From Candidatus Goldiibacteriota bacterium (GTDB taxonomy: Bacteria > Oederibacteriota > PGYV01 > DSYL01): DNA of 64,000 nt. The notes under the pieces were generated by a model. That model saw only the letters and a list, made by a program, of their open reading frames with translations, ran no database searches and was not told the origin of the DNA. Made by a program: the position numbers and the translations under genes. Numbering within the stretch: the first letter of the stretch is position 1; the number at the start of each line of letters is the position of its first letter. This document shows positions 4,865-26,930 of the stretch, piece by piece. The stretch covers positions 137,889-201,888 of the forward strand of contig JAGNJD010000001.1 of assembly GCA_018000835.1 (NCBI GenBank), read 5' to 3'.

Positions 4865-6115
4865 TTAAAGCATTTTTATTTTGCTTAAAATTTCCCTGAC
4901 TCTTATTGCCTCAACTGATTTGCCTGTTTTTTCGTAAATTTTATAAAGTTTTTCATATTCTTCTATAAGAAAGTTTTTCATGTTTTTCTTTGTATAAATC
5001 TCTATTAGATTTTCGTGTAAGATAACGTTTTCCGCATCGACGTTTAAAACTTTGTTTGACATGGCTATGGCTTCATCCAGCATATTCTGGGATTTAAGCA
5101 GCAAAAATGCCTTTAAATAATATTCTGCGGCTTTTTTGTATTCTGCCATTTTCAAAAAAACATCTCCTATTTGTTCCAGAAGTTCTTCGTTTTCATTTAT
5201 TACGTTTGCTTCCAGGGATAAAAGCATTGATTTTGATTTTTGATATTCCCCGGTTTTAAAATAAATTTTCCCAAGCAGTACTTTCTCTTCCTGCGTAAGT
5301 TCATTTTGTGATTCAAGAAGTTTTTTTGCTTCGTCAATCTTATTGTCTTTAAAAAGAAAATAAGCGTAAAATTGTTTCCCGTAGGAAATTGACAATTCCA
5401 TTGCTCTTTTTGCAATCTGTATGCCCGTCTGAATTGAGTTTTCCTCTGCAAGGGTAATAAAAATGTCTTTAAATGTTTCTTCTGCTTTTTCTTTTTCGCC
5501 GTTTTTTATCATCTCTTCTGCAAGCATTGCAAGTGCATCGGCGTTTGTTTTGTCAAGATTGATTATTTTTTTTGCTATATCAATTGCTTCGTTTATTCTG
5601 TTCATTTCCTTATATAGCCTTAACGCCTTTTCATACGCTTCTATTGCATCGCCAATAAGCATTTGTTTTTCACATGCCTCACCAAGGCAGAGTAAAACGT
5701 CAATGTTTTTACCGTCCAGTTTATCCGCCTCTTTAAGCGCTGGTATTGCCCTCGAAAAATCACCTTTATTGAATAAATCCTGGGCTTCAATAATTTTCGT
5801 AAATTTCTCGTGTAATGCTTTTCCTTCAAGGTCAAATTTTCTTGGATTTAATTTTGCTATCTTTTTATACAAAAAACCTATTTTTGAATAATTTTCTTTT
5901 TGCTGATAATCCTTTAATACGACAAGATAATGCTCAAAAGCTTTTCTATCCTGGTCAATTCTGGCATAAGCATCACCTATGGAATTATGGAGGGAAACGT
6001 CATCAGGGTCCATTTGCAGTAATTTTTCATATTCTGCTATTACTTTATCCCATTGCCCTGACTGGGCATATCTCGTTACTGTTTTTAATATGTCTTTCTT
6101 ATTTTCAATTGTCAT
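4865..6115 (-). CDS. Tetratricopeptide (TPR) repeat protein.
   Basis: Repeated 34-aa units with the W/LG/Y..A..Y..A pattern run throughout the 416-aa product. Confidence 0.7.
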   Translation of the reverse strand: MTIENKKDILKTVTRYAQSGQWDKVIAEYEKLLQMDPDDVSLHNSIGDAYARIDQDRKAFEHYLVVLKDYQQKENYSKIGFLYKKIAKLNPRKFDLEGKALHEKFTKIIEAQDLFNKGDFSRAIPALKEADKLDGKNIDVLLCLGEACEKQMLIGDAIEAYEKALRLYKEMNRINEAIDIAKKIINLDKTNADALAMLAEEMIKNGEKEKAEETFKDIFITLAEENSIQTGIQIAKRAMELSISYGKQFYAYFLFKDNKIDEAKKLLESQNELTQEEKVLLGKIYFKTGEYQKSKSMLLSLEANVINENEELLEQIGDVFLKMAEYKKAAEYYLKAFLLLKSQNMLDEAIAMSNKVLNVDAENVILHENLIEIYTKKNMKNFLIEEYEKLYKIYEKTGKSVEAIRVREILSKIKML

Positions 6116-6137: not shown

Positions 6138-7424
6138 TTATATATTTTTTTTATTTAAAATTTCAATAAAAAGTTCGGTAATTTCCGGGTCAAACTGTTT
6201 TCCTTTATTTGCCCGTAATTCATAAATCGCTTCTTCCATGGATAATGCGTCTTTAAATTCTCTTTTCGTCGTCATTGCATCAAAGGCATCAGTTATTGCC
6301 AGAATTTTTGCCTCAAGACTTATCTGATTTCCTCTTAACCCCTGTGGATAACCAAGTCCATCATATCTTTCGTGATGTTGCAAAATAATCGGGATAACAT
6401 CCTGAAGTTGTTTGATGTTTTTTAGAATTTTTATGCTGTTTTCCGGATGTTTCTGGATTTTTATGAGTTCGTCAGGCGTCAGGACATCCTTTTTTGACAA
6501 AATGTCTTTTTCTATCCCAACGTTACCCAGATCTTTTAAAATTGATGCGATTCTTAAATTTTCTATCTGCTGGGGTTTTAAATTTAATTTTTTCGCTATT
6601 TCAACGGAATACTGGGAGACCCTTTTGGCGTGGCCCGGTGCATATTTATCCGTCAAATCAAGCGTAATCATAAAGGCATTTAAAATACCTTCGTAATAAT
6701 CGTCCAGTTTATCGGTCATATCGTTAAAACTATTTGCAAGAATACGAAATTCATTTTTAACGTTTACTTTTATTTTATGTTTTAAGTTACCTGAGGATAT
6801 TATTTCCGTCCCTTTTATTAATTCAAATAACGGAGAAGTAATTTTGTTGGTAATAATAAATATTAATAAAGTAGCAAAAAATATCAAAACAATTGCAATT
6901 ATCCCGCTTTTTACGTAAATGCTTATTATTTCATTTTCAATTTTTGACTTATCAAACCCGAGATGAATGTGACCTAAAACAATTTTTTCATTTTTTAATT
7001 GAATTTCTATCGGAGTAACGATGTTTTTTACGTATGTTTCCGTCCCGTCTCTTTTGAAATAAACATTATCGTTATTATTTATAATTTCAGGAAACATTGT
7101 TTTCAGATTTTTACCAAGGTCTGCAGTGTTATTGCTTGAAAAAATTATATACTCTTTATCGGTAATAAATAAATATGCAATTTCCGGTGTCTCCATTACT
7201 TTTTTTATATATATGGAAAGGGAAATCTGGTCTTTACCGAGAATTGATTCCGCAGAAACGCCAAGAAGATATTTGTTTATCAGATTGGATTTTTCTTCTA
7301 AATTATTTAACAAAAGTTTTTTTGTATCGTTAACAATTAAAAACGTAGTAGAGGAAACGGTTACTATGACTATCAGTATTACGCTAATGATAAACTGGGT
7401 TTTTATCTTCAAAATCCCCTCCAA
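6138..7424 (-). CDS. HD-GYP domain protein (putative c-di-GMP phosphodiesterase) with N-terminal TM/periplasmic sensor and HAMP.
   Basis: Contains HHERYDGLGYPQGL (the HD-GYP signature) and an HD motif (HAKRVSQYSVEIA). Has two TM segments flanking a ~150-aa extracytoplasmic region and a HAMP-like linker. Confidence 0.8.
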   Translation of the reverse strand: MEGILKIKTQFIISVILIVIVTVSSTTFLIVNDTKKLLLNNLEEKSNLINKYLLGVSAESILGKDQISLSIYIKKVMETPEIAYLFITDKEYIIFSSNNTADLGKNLKTMFPEIINNNDNVYFKRDGTETYVKNIVTPIEIQLKNEKIVLGHIHLGFDKSKIENEIISIYVKSGIIAIVLIFFATLLIFIITNKITSPLFELIKGTEIISSGNLKHKIKVNVKNEFRILANSFNDMTDKLDDYYEGILNAFMITLDLTDKYAPGHAKRVSQYSVEIAKKLNLKPQQIENLRIASILKDLGNVGIEKDILSKKDVLTPDELIKIQKHPENSIKILKNIKQLQDVIPIILQHHERYDGLGYPQGLRGNQISLEAKILAITDAFDAMTTKREFKDALSMEEAIYELRANKGKQFDPEITELFIEILNKKNI

Positions 7425-7484
7425 CTATCTATAAAATTTTTCATAGTTTATCACAACCAATCCCTTTGTCAATACAATATGGGC

Positions 7485-7592
7485 GTGGAGTTTTCCCGTT
7501 TTTTTGTCTTTGTAGCCGCAGGCTTTATGCCTGCGTAAGCATCTGTTTTTTTTCTGATATTTATTATATTTTTAAAAACGGGAAAACTCCAC
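7485..7592. mobile_element. MITE-like 108-bp element with perfect 19-bp terminal inverted repeats (GTGGAGTTTTCCCGTTTTT / AAAAACGGGAAAACTCCAC).
   Basis: TIR copies lie at 7485-7503 and 7574-7592, with an internal GCAGGC/GCCTGC palindrome between them. This forms the left boundary of the larger TIR-bounded insertion. Confidence 0.5.
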
Positions 7593-7668
7593 TAAATATC
7601 ATATTGACATTTAATTTATATTGCGATTTGATAAAATTTGTCATACAAAGACATACTTGGGGTGACAA

Positions 7669-7857
7669 GTGAAAAACAGGGATAAAAGATTAAGCGTTAG
7701 AACAACAAAGAAAGTAGAAGAGTTGCTTAAAAGTACTTTAAAAAGAAAAGAATACAAATTCTACTCTAAATCCGATATAATCAACCTCGTTTTAGAAGAC
7801 ACCCTTCCAGGATATGCGGAAGGTAAGACAACCGCAGGTAAGAACAATGACAGATAA
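7669..7857 (+). CDS. Ribbon-helix-helix (Arc/MetJ/CopG-like) DNA-binding protein, candidate regulator of the adjacent R-M module.
   Basis: Has a beta-strand-like KRLSVRTTKK followed by two predicted helices (EELLKSTLKRKEY / KSDIINLVLED). Uses a GTG start with a GGGGTG SD-like sequence upstream. 62 aa. Confidence 0.45.
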   Translation: MKNRDKRLSVRTTKKVEELLKSTLKRKEYKFYSKSDIINLVLEDTLPGYAEGKTTAGKNNDR

Positions 7858-7881
7858 ATTTAATATGCTGGTTATTATACT

Positions 7882-9006
7882 ATGAAACCTTTAATTAAAT
7901 GGGCTGGTGGGAAATCAAGCGAAATTATACACGTAGAAGAAATGATACCTGAATTTAAGAAGTATATAGAACCATTTTTTGGTGGTGGTGCTCTATATTT
8001 TGATTTGGAACCTGACAACGCAGTAATTAACGATATCTCTGACGAACTAATTAGTTTTTATAAAATGATTAAGGACAGTTCTTTAAGGGAAGCGTTCAAA
8101 GAAGAATTGTATAAGTATGTTGAGGCGTGGGAAAAAATAGACGTGTATCTGGAAGAGTTTGGAGACGCAATACTTCAACAATATACAAAATACAAGAAAG
8201 ACGACATTGACATTGACGAACTTGAAAAAGCAATAGGTAAATTGTTTAAGAATAAAATCGTTCCTTTCAATGGACTGTTTAAGAAGGATTTTTGCATAGA
8301 CCAGTCCAGTTTACTTGAAAAAATGGAAACTAATTTAATTTCTAAATTGGAACGAACAAAGGAAAAAGTTAATAAGAAGAATAGTTTCTCGGACTCGGAA
8401 ATATCTAAAAATATTGAGTCGGCATTACGTAGTGGTTTATATATGCACTTCCGCAGTATCTTTAATGAAGCCAAAAAGAAAACAATTAGTATCATAAATG
8501 CAAAGAAAATTGCTAATTGGTATTTTATCAGAGAGTTCTGCTATGGCGGTATGTTCAGATTTAATAGTAAAGGCGAATTCAATGTCCCTTATGGTGGTAT
8601 AGCATATAACAAAAAGGATTTACGTTCAAAAGTTGATTATTTGTTCTCTGACGAAATTAAAAACCTTTTATCAAACTCTAAAATATATAGCAAAGATTTT
8701 GAAACGCTTTTTAAGGATATAAATCCTACAAAGAATGATTTTATATTCCTTGACCCACCTTACGACTCTGAATTCAGTGAATATGAAGAAAATGCTTTTA
8801 CAAAATATGACCAAGAACGTTTGGCGAAGTTATTATATACGTGTAAGGCACAGTGGATTCTTGTTATCAAGGAAACTCCATTTATCAAAGGTCTATATAC
8901 TGGACACAAAGGTATAAAAATAAAAAAGTTTAGTAAATCATATCTTTTTAATATCAAAGAAAGAAACGAAAGAAAAGTTCTACACTTGATAATTCATAAT
9001 CTATGA
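7882..9006 (+). CDS. Dam-family (D12 class, alpha-type) N6-adenine DNA methyltransferase.
   Basis: N-terminus KWAGGKSSEI...EPFFGGGALYF matches Dam motif X/I (KWAGGK, F-G-G). DPPY motif IV is present (FLDPPYDSEF). A ~120-aa insertion lies between them, probably the target-recognition domain. Confidence 0.85.
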   Translation: MKPLIKWAGGKSSEIIHVEEMIPEFKKYIEPFFGGGALYFDLEPDNAVINDISDELISFYKMIKDSSLREAFKEELYKYVEAWEKIDVYLEEFGDAILQQYTKYKKDDIDIDELEKAIGKLFKNKIVPFNGLFKKDFCIDQSSLLEKMETNLISKLERTKEKVNKKNSFSDSEISKNIESALRSGLYMHFRSIFNEAKKKTISIINAKKIANWYFIREFCYGGMFRFNSKGEFNVPYGGIAYNKKDLRSKVDYLFSDEIKNLLSNSKIYSKDFETLFKDINPTKNDFIFLDPPYDSEFSEYEENAFTKYDQERLAKLLYTCKAQWILVIKETPFIKGLYTGHKGIKIKKFSKSYLFNIKERNERKVLHLIIHNL

Positions 9007-9009
9007 GTA

Positions 9010-9741
9010 TCAGCGTCCTCTTTGATTTGCAATGATACTTTTTAATTGGTCAATCGTGAGCATAGGGTCTTTTTTATGAATAATACTATGGCAATTTGAA
9101 CATACTGGGACTACTTTTTTAAGTGCTTCATCTACCGATTGCTTCCTTCCAGTGCCATCAACAAGATGGATTGGTTCCGTGTGATGAATGACAATGAAAT
9201 CCTTACCCACGCCATCATATAAATCTTCAAAATTAAAACCACAAGCACAACATGCTATTGGGTTACCGCTTTGTTTTAATTGTCTAATTTTAAGTATGCG
9301 TAATTTCGTTGAACGTGCCCTTTGTTTTCTTGTTGTTTCCGTTACGTTGCCTTCTTCAATAACCAAATTTTTGTAATCGTTATCCATCTCGTCTTCTCTT
9401 TGTTTCGGAGAAAATCCTTGTGAGATTAAAGACATATATGTTCCATTGTTGTTTTGTAAAAACAATTGACCTTTTTTCGTTAACTTATATTTTTTAGTCC
9501 TATAACTATATGTTACAAGTCCGTTAGTAAAAATTCTTCTCCTCCGAAATTTCGTAAAGTTTCCAATACGCTGGTGAAGCATTATCTCGCCTTTGCGTTT
9601 TTTACTTCTTTGAGCAGAAGTGCCAGTAGGATTAAGACGTTGTAGAAGTGTAGTTTTAATAGAACTCATTGGTAGTCCAGAAGGATTTTCAGATAAAACC
9701 TTCATAAAAGGAATTTCCAAATCTTTTTCAAAATAATCCAT
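9010..9741 (-). CDS. HNH-family endonuclease, candidate restriction partner of the Dam-like methyltransferase.
   Basis: C-terminal C-x2-C...HH...C-x2-C-H arrangement (IACCACGF...VIHHTEPIHL...VPVCSNCHSIIHKK). It is convergent with the methyltransferase and only 3 bp away, tail-to-tail. Confidence 0.65.
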   Translation of the reverse strand: MDYFEKDLEIPFMKVLSENPSGLPMSSIKTTLLQRLNPTGTSAQRSKKRKGEIMLHQRIGNFTKFRRRRIFTNGLVTYSYRTKKYKLTKKGQLFLQNNNGTYMSLISQGFSPKQREDEMDNDYKNLVIEEGNVTETTRKQRARSTKLRILKIRQLKQSGNPIACCACGFNFEDLYDGVGKDFIVIHHTEPIHLVDGTGRKQSVDEALKKVVPVCSNCHSIIHKKDPMLTIDQLKSIIANQRGR

Positions 9742-9998
9742 TTTTGCCCTCCTATTAACCCAAGAATTATATTATCATTAAAACACACTTAATAATATAT
9801 ATAATACGGTGGCCCCGTTTGTCAAGACCGATTTTTCCAGAATTTAAGGTGGATACCAAGCTAACGGAAGCAACCTCCTTTCTCATCGGATTTTTGTAAC
9901 TTGACCGCCTGAAATTTCTCTCTAGGATGTCTTCTGTTGCGACTTCTTGAATCAGGTAAGGGGCCAGCACCCCGGACTTTTTCTCTAACTGCGGCATC

Positions 9999-10846
9999 TC
10001 AGGCAGCATTCTTTGCCTGCCTCTTGGCTTTGACTGCTGCGCCAAAATAAACTTCTGCCGGAGTACGATAATCAAGAGCCTGATGCAAGCGGATATTGTT
10101 ATGAATTTTGAAATACTTTTTAAGCCCGGACTCGTATTCAAACATTGTTTCGTACCCCTTTGGATAAACGTCATCATACTTTACACTCCGCCACAGCCTC
10201 TCTACAATGATGTTGTCGTGAGATCTGCCCTTACCATCCATGCTAATCTTTATCTTCTTGCCTTCAAGTATGTCAGTAAACGTTTTGTCCGTGAACTGAG
10301 AGCCCTGATCCGTGTTGAAATATTCCGGCTTGCCGTGTTTGTCAAGCGATTCCAGCAAAGCTGCCTTGCAGAAACTGCTGTCGAGGCTGTAAGACAAAAC
10401 ATACCTGCTGTGCCAGTCCACTATCGCCACAAGATACGCATATCCACGCCTAAGGCGTATGTACGTAATATCTGCTGCCCAAACCACGTTAGAACGCTTT
10501 ATTTTCAACCCTTTTAGCAGATACGGGTACTTCTTGTGCACCTTATTCGGAATACTTAGCCTTTTTTTCGGGCATATTGCCTCTATTCCCATGATTTTCA
10601 TCATACTGCAGGTTTTTTGCGTCCTATTTTTATCCCGTGCAGTTTATACAACGCCTTGGATATCTTTCTGGCTCCGTAGAACGGGCATTCTGTGTATATT
10701 TCGTCTATCCTGTCAAGGATCACTTTATCTAACTCTTTCATCGGCCGTTTTTCATAGTACAGCACCGATTTACATACTCCCAGCAGTTTGCATTGCCTGC
10801 TTATGCTGAAATTCTTGTCGTATGGGTCAACAAACATCCTCCTCAC
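9999..10846 (-). pseudogene. IS3-family transposase OrfB (integrase/rve core), split by a 1-nt frameshift in an A6/T6 run.
   Basis: Two ORFs are in different frames: 10601-10846 (MRRMFVDPYDKNFSISRQCKLLGV...HGIKIGRKKPAV*) and 9999-10604 (MMKIMGIEAICPKKR...DDE core). Inserting one A in the homopolymer (plus strand 10613-10618) restores ...GRKKTCSMMKIMGIEAI... Confidence 0.6.
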
Positions 10847-11130
10847 AACAGGTTCAACTTTTTTAAATTTTTTTTTAACCAGTTTATCTCCAGATCCTTC
10901 TCGCCGATCAGCCTCAGATACTCATCTTCTCGCGATTCCCGTTCTTTTTCTTCCTTGTTGTTCGGTTTCGCAAACAAACTCGCTGCGTTCAGAAGTAAAT
11001 GTTTCTTCCATTCCGTCACTTTATTCGGATGAACTCCGTATTTCGCCGCAACCTCGCTGATTCTTACGCCTTCCCGTGATGCTTCAAGTGCTACCTTTGC
11101 CTTAAAACTCTCCTCATAACGTTTTCACAT
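10843..11130 (-). pseudogene. IS3-family transposase OrfA; the initiator ATG is followed directly by an in-frame TGA.
   Basis: Minus-strand translation after the stop reads KRYEESFKAKVALEASREGVRISEVAAKYGVHPNKVTEWKKHL...LKKNLKKLNLL*, typical of IS3 OrfA. An AGGAGG RBS precedes ATG-TGA at 11130-11125, so codon 2 is a stop. Confidence 0.55.
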
Positions 11131-11191
11131 GATGAACCTCCTGGGTTTCTCTAATTTTACTACAGCAAATCCACCTTAAAAACCGAAAAAA

Positions 11192-11692
11192 TCAGTCCGA
11201 AAAACCTAGGCCATTATACCCATCGACCAGGGCATACTGCTTAAAAATTGAGACCTCAAAAAAACGCTTTGCCTTCTCCACAAACTTCTTAAACACAATA
11301 CTGAACCTCAAACGTATGCCAAGTTCTACGCTATTAACCGCCTTTAATATCTGTTTGTTCTCGCTTTCAGAATCTTCCGCACTTTGTGAATACGCCTTGC
11401 TGTACAACGGCGTCAACTCTTCGCCTTTTACTTCCGCCCCGATGACTTCGCATATCCAGTATCCATTCACAATCTCTTTTCTTGAACCATCATACACCCT
11501 GTCCATATTTTCCATTTTTTTCGCAAAATCTTTCCTTATATCGCTCAAATCTAACGCATGCACCGTATCTTTTTTTATCCTTCGGACTCCTTTTTCAAGC
11601 AACCGCATATTCAGTTTGTCTGTCAGATCTTCTCTTGCTAATTGATGCGTCAGCCGTATTTCCGTCTTTATCAGTTTTATTTTTTCACACAA
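11192..11692 (-). CDS. Hypothetical protein whose 3' end is truncated by the IS3 insertion.
   Basis: The 166-aa ORF terminates at a TGA located inside the IS3 terminal IR (11192-11194). No domain recognised. Confidence 0.3.
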   Translation of the reverse strand: MCEKIKLIKTEIRLTHQLAREDLTDKLNMRLLEKGVRRIKKDTVHALDLSDIRKDFAKKMENMDRVYDGSRKEIVNGYWICEVIGAEVKGEELTPLYSKAYSQSAEDSESENKQILKAVNSVELGIRLRFSIVFKKFVEKAKRFFEVSIFKQYALVDGYNGLGFSD

Positions 11693-11992
11693 ATTCCTGG
11701 ATACTTCTTATATCTTTATATCGCGCGTCGCCTGTATCCCATATATCATCTGCCTAAAAAATTTCTTCCTTGGCATTGTTAATACTTTGCTTATCTCTAT
11801 TATGAATTTTTCAATTCGCTCTTTTATTTCTTCCAAAATTTTGCTATTATTTTCATCGGGATTCCTCCTTTTGGGGAAAACTCTTTTCCCTCTTTTTTTC
11901 GTTAAAAACAGTATACAAAATTGGAATCCCTTTTTTAATCCTTATTTTTGTTTTCTTCTTATTTGATAAGCCTTTTCTGGATTTTGAATTAA

Positions 11993-12011
11993 AAAAACGG
12001 GAAAACTCCAC
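11993..12011. repeat. Solo copy of the 19-bp TIR (AAAAACGGGAAAACTCCAC), the right boundary of the 4.5-kb insertion.
   Basis: Exact match to the TIRs at 7485-7503 and 7574-7592. It is followed by G plus ATATGGGC (12013-12020), identical to the 8 bp at 7477-7484. Confidence 0.6.
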
Positions 12012-12279
12012 GATATGGGCTTACAATCTTTACTTAAAATCATTACCATCTGGTAAACTTACCATTTTATGTATGTCCAATCAATAAATTGCATAAAAGC
12101 ATATAATTTAAAAAGAGATTGTCTAAAATTTATATTTTTTTACCAAACAGTAGCATCTCGTCTTAGAATAGACAAAAATTCCAGTTTAGTATAAAAATAT
12201 TAATTCTTTTATTAAATTTAACAAAAATAATTGAAACCGTGTCCCCGATAATAAAACTCATATTCATTTAATAAAAAAA

Positions 12280-12342
12280 GGCGTAGGGATATAGAGGGGT
12301 TTTTACGAGCAAAGGTAGGCTCAACCCTACGCCAAAGTTATT
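12280..12342 (-). terminator. Possible Rho-independent terminator: 9-bp GC stem GGCGTAGGG/CCCTACGCC with a long loop, followed on the minus strand by T7.
   Basis: Stem halves are at 12280-12288 and 12325-12333; the minus-strand T-run corresponds to plus-strand A-run 12271-12279. The loop is unusually long (36 nt). Confidence 0.3.
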
Positions 12343-12515
12343 AATAGCAAAAAATAATTATTTTGTCAAGAATTTTAAATTTCAACGATGAGGCTTCTGC
12401 TTGATGCACTTCATTTTAAAATCTTTATTCAATAACCTGTCCTTTATAATAATATCAGAGATTTAAATTACATCAAAAATTTATAATTCGCCTATTGCAA
12501 GATAAAAATAAATTT

Positions 12516-12783
12516 TTAATCAGGGAGTGAATAAAACACATCATCTGCACCATTATTTGTAAAATCTTCCAGGTTTGAACCATCTGTGTTTATTAAGTAT
12601 ATCCCCCGGTTGCTGTCACAGTTGTCTGCAGCCGCTATCTTGCCCTTCACCGCCGCCAACAGGCGTATTTGTTATCGCCGGCTTTGCAGGCGTTTCGTCT
12701 TTTTTGCTGCATCCGATAATCATTATTCCCGTAAATACAAAACAAACCGTTAAAATCAATGCTAATCTTTTCATCGTTCCACC
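12516..12783 (-). pseudogene. Small lipoprotein gene with an internal frameshift.
   Basis: The minus strand reads MKRLALILTVCFVFTGIMIIGCSKKDETPAKPAITNTPVGGGEGQDSGCRQL*, with signal peptide and lipobox Cys. Translation continues in another frame as ...DSNRGIYLINTDGSNLEDFTNNGADDVFYSLPD*. Confidence 0.3.
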
Positions 12784-12822
12784 CTTTTATTTTTAATGAT
12801 ACAACAAACAGTTGGACCCCCT

Positions 12823-13008
12823 CGGGCTAAAACCCGAGGCTCCCACAAAAAATTCAATCAATTTGTCCCGTAGAAATTCTCTTTACGGGATTCGTTGATT
12901 GACCAGGGGACGAGGAATACCAGTGATATTCCGCATCGACCTTGGAACCCTCCTGGCAAAGTAGATAAAACATTTTTAATGTATGCATTCATAAAATATC
13001 TGCGTTTA
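12823..13008 (+). repeat. Intergenic repeat family A, copy 1 (~186 bp); candidate small RNA or MITE-like element.
   Basis: About 87% identical to 22251-22439. Contains local hairpins CCTCGGG-CTAAAA-CCCGAGG and CCCGTA...TACGGG, and GGAATA...TATTCC. Confidence 0.5.
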
Positions 13009-26613: not shown

Positions 26614-26930
26614 TTAAATCTGCCTTTTTGTTAAATTATATATAAAATAATCGTTTACTGCAAATTAAAATTATGATTATATTATAAACGGGCATAATGA
26701 AAATCAAAAAGTATTACCATTGGAAAATCCGGAATAATTATACCGGAACAAAAAGTATTTTTTAAAAACGGGAAAATAAAGAAGGAAATAATAAGAAAAA
26801 TTTACAAAAAATACATTAAATTTTAATTGACATATTTTTTTATTTTGATAATATTATATGTGCATAGAAAATATTATGCAATTTGTAGATTTTGTTCTAC
26901 AAGTAATTTTTTTCAGGAGGTAGTAGATTT

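Follow-up and report, generated by a model that had tools for sequence, protein, structure and literature searches.

This locus raises the question of whether a 108-bp palindromic unit is a mobile element in its own right, one end of something larger, or a piece of host DNA. The unit lies in a 64,000-nucleotide stretch from a metagenome-assembled genome (MAG) of Candidatus Goldbacteria, the whole of which is referred to here as the window. A preliminary description of the window had called it a MITE-like unit (MITE, for miniature inverted-repeat transposable element), with 19-bp perfect terminal inverted repeats (TIRs) and an internal palindrome, and had taken a partial match near 26766 as a hint of more degenerate copies.

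Anatomy of the 108-bp unit

The terminal inverted repeats proved exact: arms of 19 nt at 7485-7503 (GTGGAGTTTTCCCGTTTTT) and 7574-7592 (AAAAACGGGAAAACTCCAC) are 100% complementary and spaced 70 nt apart. The inner palindrome is also present, as a dyad (GCAGGCTTTATGCCTGC) at 7518-7534 whose full stem is 7 bp long (CGCAGGC-TTTAT-GCCTGCG, 7517-7535). The parts of the unit are the following.

7485-7592, no strand assigned: the 108-bp miniature element, made of two insertion sequence (IS) tips and a core of ~70 bp
7485-7505, plus strand: tip L, the outer end, which faces the HD-GYP gene promoter
7504-7573, no strand assigned: the core of the unit, with a REP-like hairpin at 7517-7535
7574-7592, minus strand: tip M, the inner end, repeated in direct orientation at 11993-12011

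If up to three mismatches are tolerated, the GTGGAGTTTTCCCGTTTTT 19-mer would be expected 0.09 times in the window and was found three times, all exact, so that the tip repeat is not a product of chance. The third full copy lies at 11993-12011, and tip L is inverted-identical over 19 nt to 7574-7592 and over 21-22 nt to 11991-12012. The supposed degenerate copy near 26766 did not hold up. The match at 26764, a 13-mer without mismatch that grows to an A/T-rich 18-mer (26759-26776) once the neighbouring T-run is counted, lies in a 730-bp intergenic region; it was rejected because it has neither the terminal CTCCAC hexamer nor a partner arm and nothing else around it is alike.

The unit of the window is 99% identical to copies in the metagenome contigs L012 and L016-L019, and in an alignment of six copies the edges of homology are sharp and fall exactly at GTGGAG and CTCCAC(G). 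It carries no transposase gene; the single open reading frame (ORF) across it (7466-7672, 68 aa, TTG start) enters from the host flank and is without family support. The predicted fold of the 108 bp is very stable (-44 kcal/mol, z about -7 to -8). This hairpin, the position of the unit between two divergent genes and the outward-pointing -35-like hexamers on both of its flanks would suit a cis-regulatory or structural element of the host, such as an operator palindrome, a bidirectional terminator, an insulator, a small structured RNA or a promoter that can be inverted. Such a role is very improbable, since related species have no part of the unit in this intergenic region although their HD-GYP promoter is conserved, and since its arms match exactly the tips of an IS that bears a transposase. 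Moreover, no promoter or terminator is predicted within the 108 bp, and Rfam returned no family at gathering thresholds over the whole window or, even at E <= 1, over 7300-12500. An inverton was rejected on similar grounds: there is no promoter inside, the core has one orientation in 6/6 sequences (five assemblies), and the genes nearby encode a methylase, an HNH nuclease and transposases but no invertase, with no recombinase gene adjacent.

Two simple derivations of the unit from an IS were also ruled out. Abutted IS ends, as in a circle junction or a tandem dimer, are incompatible with the 70 bp of unrelated DNA between the tips, and an internal-deletion remnant is incompatible with the lack of significant similarity between the core and the IS subterminal regions on both sides (p >= 0.19). 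In addition, the stop codon of the full-length IS lies only ~10 bp from the right tip, so the core cannot derive from the IS interior. The core hairpin is near-identical to one arm of free-standing REP-like units in the L003 genome, which suggests that the core may be captured host DNA. The REP-like units of L003 (11486-11540 and 19460-19515) are double hairpins (GGTAGTCGCAGGCTTTAGCCTGCG...CCGCAGGCTAAAGCCTGCGACTACC) that recur in intergenic DNA of this related metagenomic genome.

The unit is not a single occurrence without relatives, as its tips recur on an IS and further copies exist in a sister strain. The number of copies, which the preliminary description had proposed to check genome-wide, is low in the data searched (one in the window and two in the sister strain). 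A scan of 185,579 reference genomes for the exact 19-mer returned two one-armed matches, in Lentzea and Desulfobulbus, neither of which was accepted as a copy because each is single, one-armed and at chance level (roughly 4 expected). A two-armed pattern scan of metagenome contigs returned at least one contig, a lower bound given that it missed L016, which was found later via a protein. Scans of viral contigs gave no match for the tip or the transposase.

The parent insertion sequence

The third tip copy belongs to the remains of an IS.

11991-12011, minus strand: tip R, at once the IS's IRL tip and an outer end of the composite described below
11218-12011, minus strand: decayed parent IS of the IS4 family, 94-96% identical to L004 2805-3483 and 3996-4110

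This decayed IS retains the IRL tip and the N-terminal part of its transposase gene. This gene (minus strand, 11192-11836), whose relatives carry DDE_Tnp_1 (PF01609), is broken by a frameshift around codon 3, by a TAA in frame and by the loss of 512 bp from its interior, and an IS3-type element truncates the C-terminal piece. Seven related metagenome contigs (L004-L010) yielded near-complete copies, 1430 bp in length, that share 94% identity with window 11332-12011. The 1430-bp IS starts with GTGGAGTTTTCCCGTTTTTT and ends with its reverse complement, and the 19-21-nt tips of the unit are identical to the IRL and IRR of these copies. No intact transposase gene was present among the retrieved copies, all of which are frameshifted and/or contain an in-frame stop.

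A transposase sequence pieced together from the fragments P0002, P0005, P0007 and P0009 is colinear with a single ORF. It scores 50.7 bits against PF01609 (cutoff 23), has D103, D190 and E309 with spacers of 86 and 118, and contains the motif YLTRWKCEESFRFLK, which reads as Y(2)R(3)E(6)K. The IS4 family has been described (PMC2266710) by a DDE transposase, encoded in one uninterrupted ORF, whose residues are spaced D(60-110)D(100-150)E, by the presence in it of Y(2)R(3)E(6)K and by a target duplication of roughly one turn of the helix (7-13 bp). Target duplications of 11 bp are seen around the IS in L005/L008 (AATAACAAAAA) and around a 55%-identical IS relative in L003 (TAACACTTTTT), and the insertion in L011 is flanked by a duplication matching at 8/9 over 9 bp. 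Scores against the NCBIfam IS4 models are all below cutoff (the best is 64 bits against 152), with IS701 models scoring alike, and the tips begin GTGGAG, in contrast to the CA/CT of the named IS4 subgroups. Judged by these sequence features, the low NCBIfam scores and the GTGGAG tips mark the parent IS as a divergent member of the IS4 family that no named subgroup fits.

The IS copy in L004 (2805-4234) has the same left flank as the L005 copy and the same right flank as the L007/L009 copy. Mixed flanks of this kind in L004 and L009 mean that the IS is present at at least three genomic sites in the L004/L005/L008/L009 populations, and that recombination between copies or chimeric assembly occurs.

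The 4.5-kb structure and its cargo

Tip L (7485) and tip R (12011), which lie 4.5 kb apart, are perfect inverted repeats of each other over 21-22 bp. The features between and immediately outside them, apart from those already given, are listed here.

7476-7484, no strand: left putative duplication, AATATGGGC, which matches 12012-12020 at 8/9
7669-7857, plus strand: cargo ORF of 62 aa upstream of the methylase, with no significant family
7882-9006, plus strand: cargo Dam-family N6-adenine DNA methyltransferase (PF02086, 2.7e-36)
9010-9741, minus strand: cargo HNH-type nuclease of 243 aa (phrog_2255 HNH endonuclease, 7.8e-8)
9810-11213, minus strand: IS3-type element with rve and HTH_21 ORFs and 45-nt imperfect terminal repeats
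12012-12020, no strand: right putative duplication, GATATGGGC

For random 9-mer pairs drawn from the window, a flank match of 8/9 has P = 4.4e-4. If the tips are instead read as CGTGGAG/CTCCACG, the flanks become a perfect 7-bp duplication, ATATGGG, with its left copy at 7477-7483. The duplication of the composite is shorter than the 11 bp of the two clean IS insertions. The unit taken alone has mismatching flanks (AATATGGGC / TAAATATCA) and hence no duplication of its own. The outer tips are inverted around cargo and the duplication flanks the whole structure, from which it follows that 7485-12011 has, as far as its sequence can tell, the layout of a composite transposon, with the 108-bp unit as one arm and a dead IS as the other. 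The expected empty-target sequence is ...GTAAGCCCATATTGTATTGACA.... The earlier label of MITE-like is therefore apt for the anatomy of the unit, which is small, non-coding and bounded by the tips of an IS4-family IS, but not for a stand-alone insertion; likewise, matching flanks are found around the composite but not around any of the examined unit copies by itself.

The methyltransferase (MBP7791550.1) scores 180 bits against TIGR00571 (cutoff 115). The 243-aa nuclease has no Pfam match and is a candidate restriction partner of the Dam-type methylase. The inner IS tip that would be expected in a true IS-cargo-MITE composite is missing, and is presumed to have been lost together with the IS3-type insertion. 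This element is richer in GC than the window (about 43-46% against 33%), and the absence of a visible target duplication at 9810-11213 implies an adjacent deletion or rearrangement.

Taken together, the 108-bp unit is probably a non-autonomous derivative of the 1430-bp IS and an arm of a 4.5-kb composite whose other arm is a dead IS, the ~20-bp terminal repeats presumably being the sites of transposase binding and cleavage. By analogy with IS4-family cut-and-paste elements, we infer mobilisation in trans: an intact IS copy would supply the transposase, and any two correctly oriented tips could be paired. The DNA between them would then be excised and inserted by a staggered cut, leaving a short duplication. 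At this locus the paired tips would be L and R, the cargo would comprise the small ORF, the Dam-type methylase and the HNH nuclease, and the insertion would have hit a target 12 bp upstream of the HD-GYP gene's -35 box. The best-supported reading overall is that pairs of tips (unit and IS, or unit and unit) mobilised the DNA between them.

A second copy of the unit and a strain polymorphism are observed in a 15-kb contig from a sister strain (L016), whose sequence agrees with that of the window at 99.2-99.3% identity on either side. Its two unit copies, in direct orientation, bracket 3144 bp that hold four genes not present in the window; these encode proteins of 159 aa and 172 aa, a B12-binding radical-SAM enzyme and a PNPOx-like protein. 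Copy A (5163-5270) has the same right-hand host junction as tip R of the window (...GTAAGCCCATATC followed by GTGGAG), and copy B (8415-8524) has the same HD-GYP promoter junction as the unit of the window (CTCCAC followed by GCCCATATTGTATTGACA). Neither copy is flanked by a duplication (copy A, GCCCATATC / GAGAGATAC; copy B, TTTTTTATC / GCCCATATT). The junction between copy A and the cargo was found again in three further samples, and the suspicion that L012 is a chimeric contig was dropped because the junction is confirmed by L016 and two further samples.

The window and L016 share their outer junctions, down to the one mismatch of the duplication, but differ in the cargo between them, and in both strains direct copies of the 19-bp tip bound the variable segment. 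The identity of the outer junctions argues for their origin in one ancestral insertion, after which the cargo would have been either replaced or independently gained by recombination at the tips. The first state may have been a single unit, a unit-cargo-unit arrangement or an IS-cargo-unit composite. Different cargo at the same outer junctions suggests that the tips have also served as breakpoints of cargo exchange or cargo gain.

An empty site is observed in related species (L013-L015), in which coaX (pantothenate kinase), a small-RNA-like element and the HD-GYP gene are adjacent, without the unit and without the cargo. This comparison covers other species only, with HD-GYP proteins of 75-78% amino-acid identity. 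The HD-GYP promoter, TTGACA-N16/17-TAAACT, is kept in the insertion-free L013 and L015. L016 thus has two copies of the unit in unlike flanks, the window has one and the related species have none.

The main alternative, which we hold to be possible rather than probable, is that a lone unit inserted first, creating the duplication and then acting as a landing pad to which the cargoes were added by recombination at the tip or unit. In the window, circular or linear DNA would have brought the restriction-modification genes and the dead IS through a crossover in the 19-21-bp tip, and in the sister strain the four-gene cluster and the second unit would have arrived through a crossover within the 108 bp. 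The unit would still be an IS-derived MITE, and the 4.5 kb would never have moved as a composite transposon. This course of events is consistent with the direct repeats M and R exactly bounding the strain-specific segment of the window, as two M-type tips do in L016, and with the inheritance of both strains' outer junctions, mismatch included, from one event. The flank of tip M in the window is also IS-like (CTCCAC followed by T) and not unit-like (CTCCAC followed by G), as expected for a crossover inside the tip, and homologous recombination has also been invoked for MITE-flanked integrons (PMC3934969). However, 19-21 bp is very short for RecA-dependent recombination, and no strain was found with a solo unit at the site. 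Targeted conservative integration is not known for IS4-family enzymes, which likewise counts against the landing-pad alternative.

The join at the 108-bp repeat lies in a MAG contig and could be an assembly error. A mis-join or collapse there would mean that the adjacency of the cassette to the HD-GYP promoter is not real; in the real genome, for example, two copies of the unit might enclose the four-gene cluster as well. The species does have two direct copies at a distance of 3.25 kb (L016), an arrangement in which short-read assemblers skip loops, and the mixed flanks around the IS copies of L004 and L009 indicate that chimeric or recombinant joins occur. In addition, copies A and B of L016 differ by one substitution and in homopolymer lengths, and the unit of the window has the substitution typical of copy B together with the homopolymer lengths of copy A. 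However, the proteins of the four L016 genes are without a member from the source MAG in 90%-identity clusters, which argues weakly against such an error, and the junction of tip R with GATATGGGC rests on a 21-bp repeat that is too short to mislead an assembler, so that the segment with the IS and the restriction-modification genes really abuts the coaX side. An artefact at this join is therefore unlikely, and the unit, the three tips and the parent IS are real whatever the join.

Further features were observed around these junctions. The left flanks of copies B and A in L016 (8395-8414 and 5143-5162) are identical at 13/20 positions (AAAnATTGTA.......ATC), and the 8-mer ATTGTATT occurs on both sides of copy B (right side 8525-8542), out of register. 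Both the flank likeness and the 8-mer may reflect chance, a target preference or the trace of an older rearrangement. Outside the composite, positions 12477-12991 of the window (515 bp), which contain a short lipoprotein-like ORF and a GC-rich hairpin (CTCGGGTTTTAGCCCGAG), are represented by ~10 bp in L012 and L016.

Possible promoter-proximal targets and known systems

Five independent junctions of the IS family share a promoter-like hexamer just outside one tip, at the following positions.

7445-7472, minus strand: HD-GYP gene promoter, TTGACA-16-TAAACT, the -35 of which starts 13 nt outside tip L
7467-7472, minus strand: TTGACA of the HD-GYP promoter, with the same junction at L016 8537-8542
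7604-7609, plus strand: TTGACA in the flank of the restriction-modification cassette
L016 5282-5287: TTGACA in the promoter of the 159-aa gene
L004 ~4247 and L011 ~2261: TTGACA at a ribonucleotide reductase gene and a TPR gene

In all, TTGACA is found 12-13 nt outside one tip in five independent IS-family junctions (chance probability < 1e-12), with a plausible -10 box 16-17 nt downstream in 4/5 of them, and a sixth junction has TTGAAA at +15. This pattern suggests that the IS family may pick targets just upstream of promoters. The presence of TTGACA outside both tips of the unit also accounts for an extra imperfect inverted repeat outside the 108 bp (TGTCAATAcaATAT / ATATcaTATTGACA). We tentatively propose that the transposase targets positions ~12 bp upstream of sigma-70-type -35 boxes and that the tips could act as docking points for cassette exchange between 99%-identical strains. 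Some elements of IS4 subgroups show strong target-arm specificity (PMC2266710), so that promoter targeting would extend a known property and not found a new one. If confirmed on more insertions, promoter-proximal targeting would be the more interesting result.

Among known systems, Tn5 and Tn10 similarly have two IS4-family end modules flanking cargo, one of them defective, with a duplication of ~9 bp outside. However, one arm is here a 108-bp miniature, the tips begin GT and not CT, and the transposase is only distantly related. Another likeness is found in MIC231 of Bacillus cereus, cassettes of IS231 (IS4 family) that are reportedly mobilised in trans by the cognate transposase. These too have IS4-family tips around non-transposase DNA, but their passenger gene lies between one tip pair, whereas the unit described here is gene-less, with the genes placed between it and another element. 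The reference list of PMC2266710 names studies of MIC231 by Chen et al. (1999) and by De Palmenaer et al. (2004).

The unit resembles prokaryotic IS-derived MITEs (MITEAba12, PMC6382973; PMC10969869) in being ~100 bp long and non-coding, with perfect TIRs that equal IS tips, and in having sharp boundaries in different sequence contexts. In contrast to these, it is without a duplication of its own, was seen in one or two copies per genome and has a core unrelated to the IS. In Acinetobacter, class 1 integrons are flanked by 439-bp MITEs, for which transposition or homologous recombination has been proposed (PMC3934969). As in these MITE-integrons and in TIME-COMPs (PMC4133298, PMC13367494), end elements bracket genes, a direct repeat flanks the whole and the cargo varies, the ends being here one miniature element and one IS. 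Unlike those systems, the ends are IS4-derived, where theirs are Tn3-family or unassigned; the cargo is a restriction-modification pair or a radical-SAM cluster and not resistance genes; and the host is an uncultivated Goldbacteria MAG.

The locus thus adds to known kinds an IS of the IS4 family, a miniature element derived from an IS and a composite bounded by a MITE and an IS, and it documents all three in Candidatus Goldbacteria; a full-text literature search pairing Goldbacteria with transposase returned no papers. The apparent strain-level replacement of cargo between identical tips sets a restriction-modification pair (defence-type) against a metabolic cluster. In annotation, the 108-bp palindrome and the tip 4.4 kb from it should be considered jointly.

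The intergenic region between coaX and the HD-GYP gene also holds a small-RNA-like module (window ~12270-12375, minus strand; L013 7795-7880; L015 375-470; L016 4850-4945), for which Rfam gave no match. It consists of a near-consensus promoter (TTGACA...TATTAAT), followed by GGCGTAGGGTTGAGCCTACCTTTGCTCGTAAAAACCCCTCTATATCCCTACGCC and then a T-run. The module is almost invariant across species, in contrast to the flanking intergenic DNA, which is not conserved. Its fold has a z-score of -4.1, and one compensatory pair (GCGTAGGG/CCCTACGC vs GCGCAGGG/CCCTGCGC) is seen.
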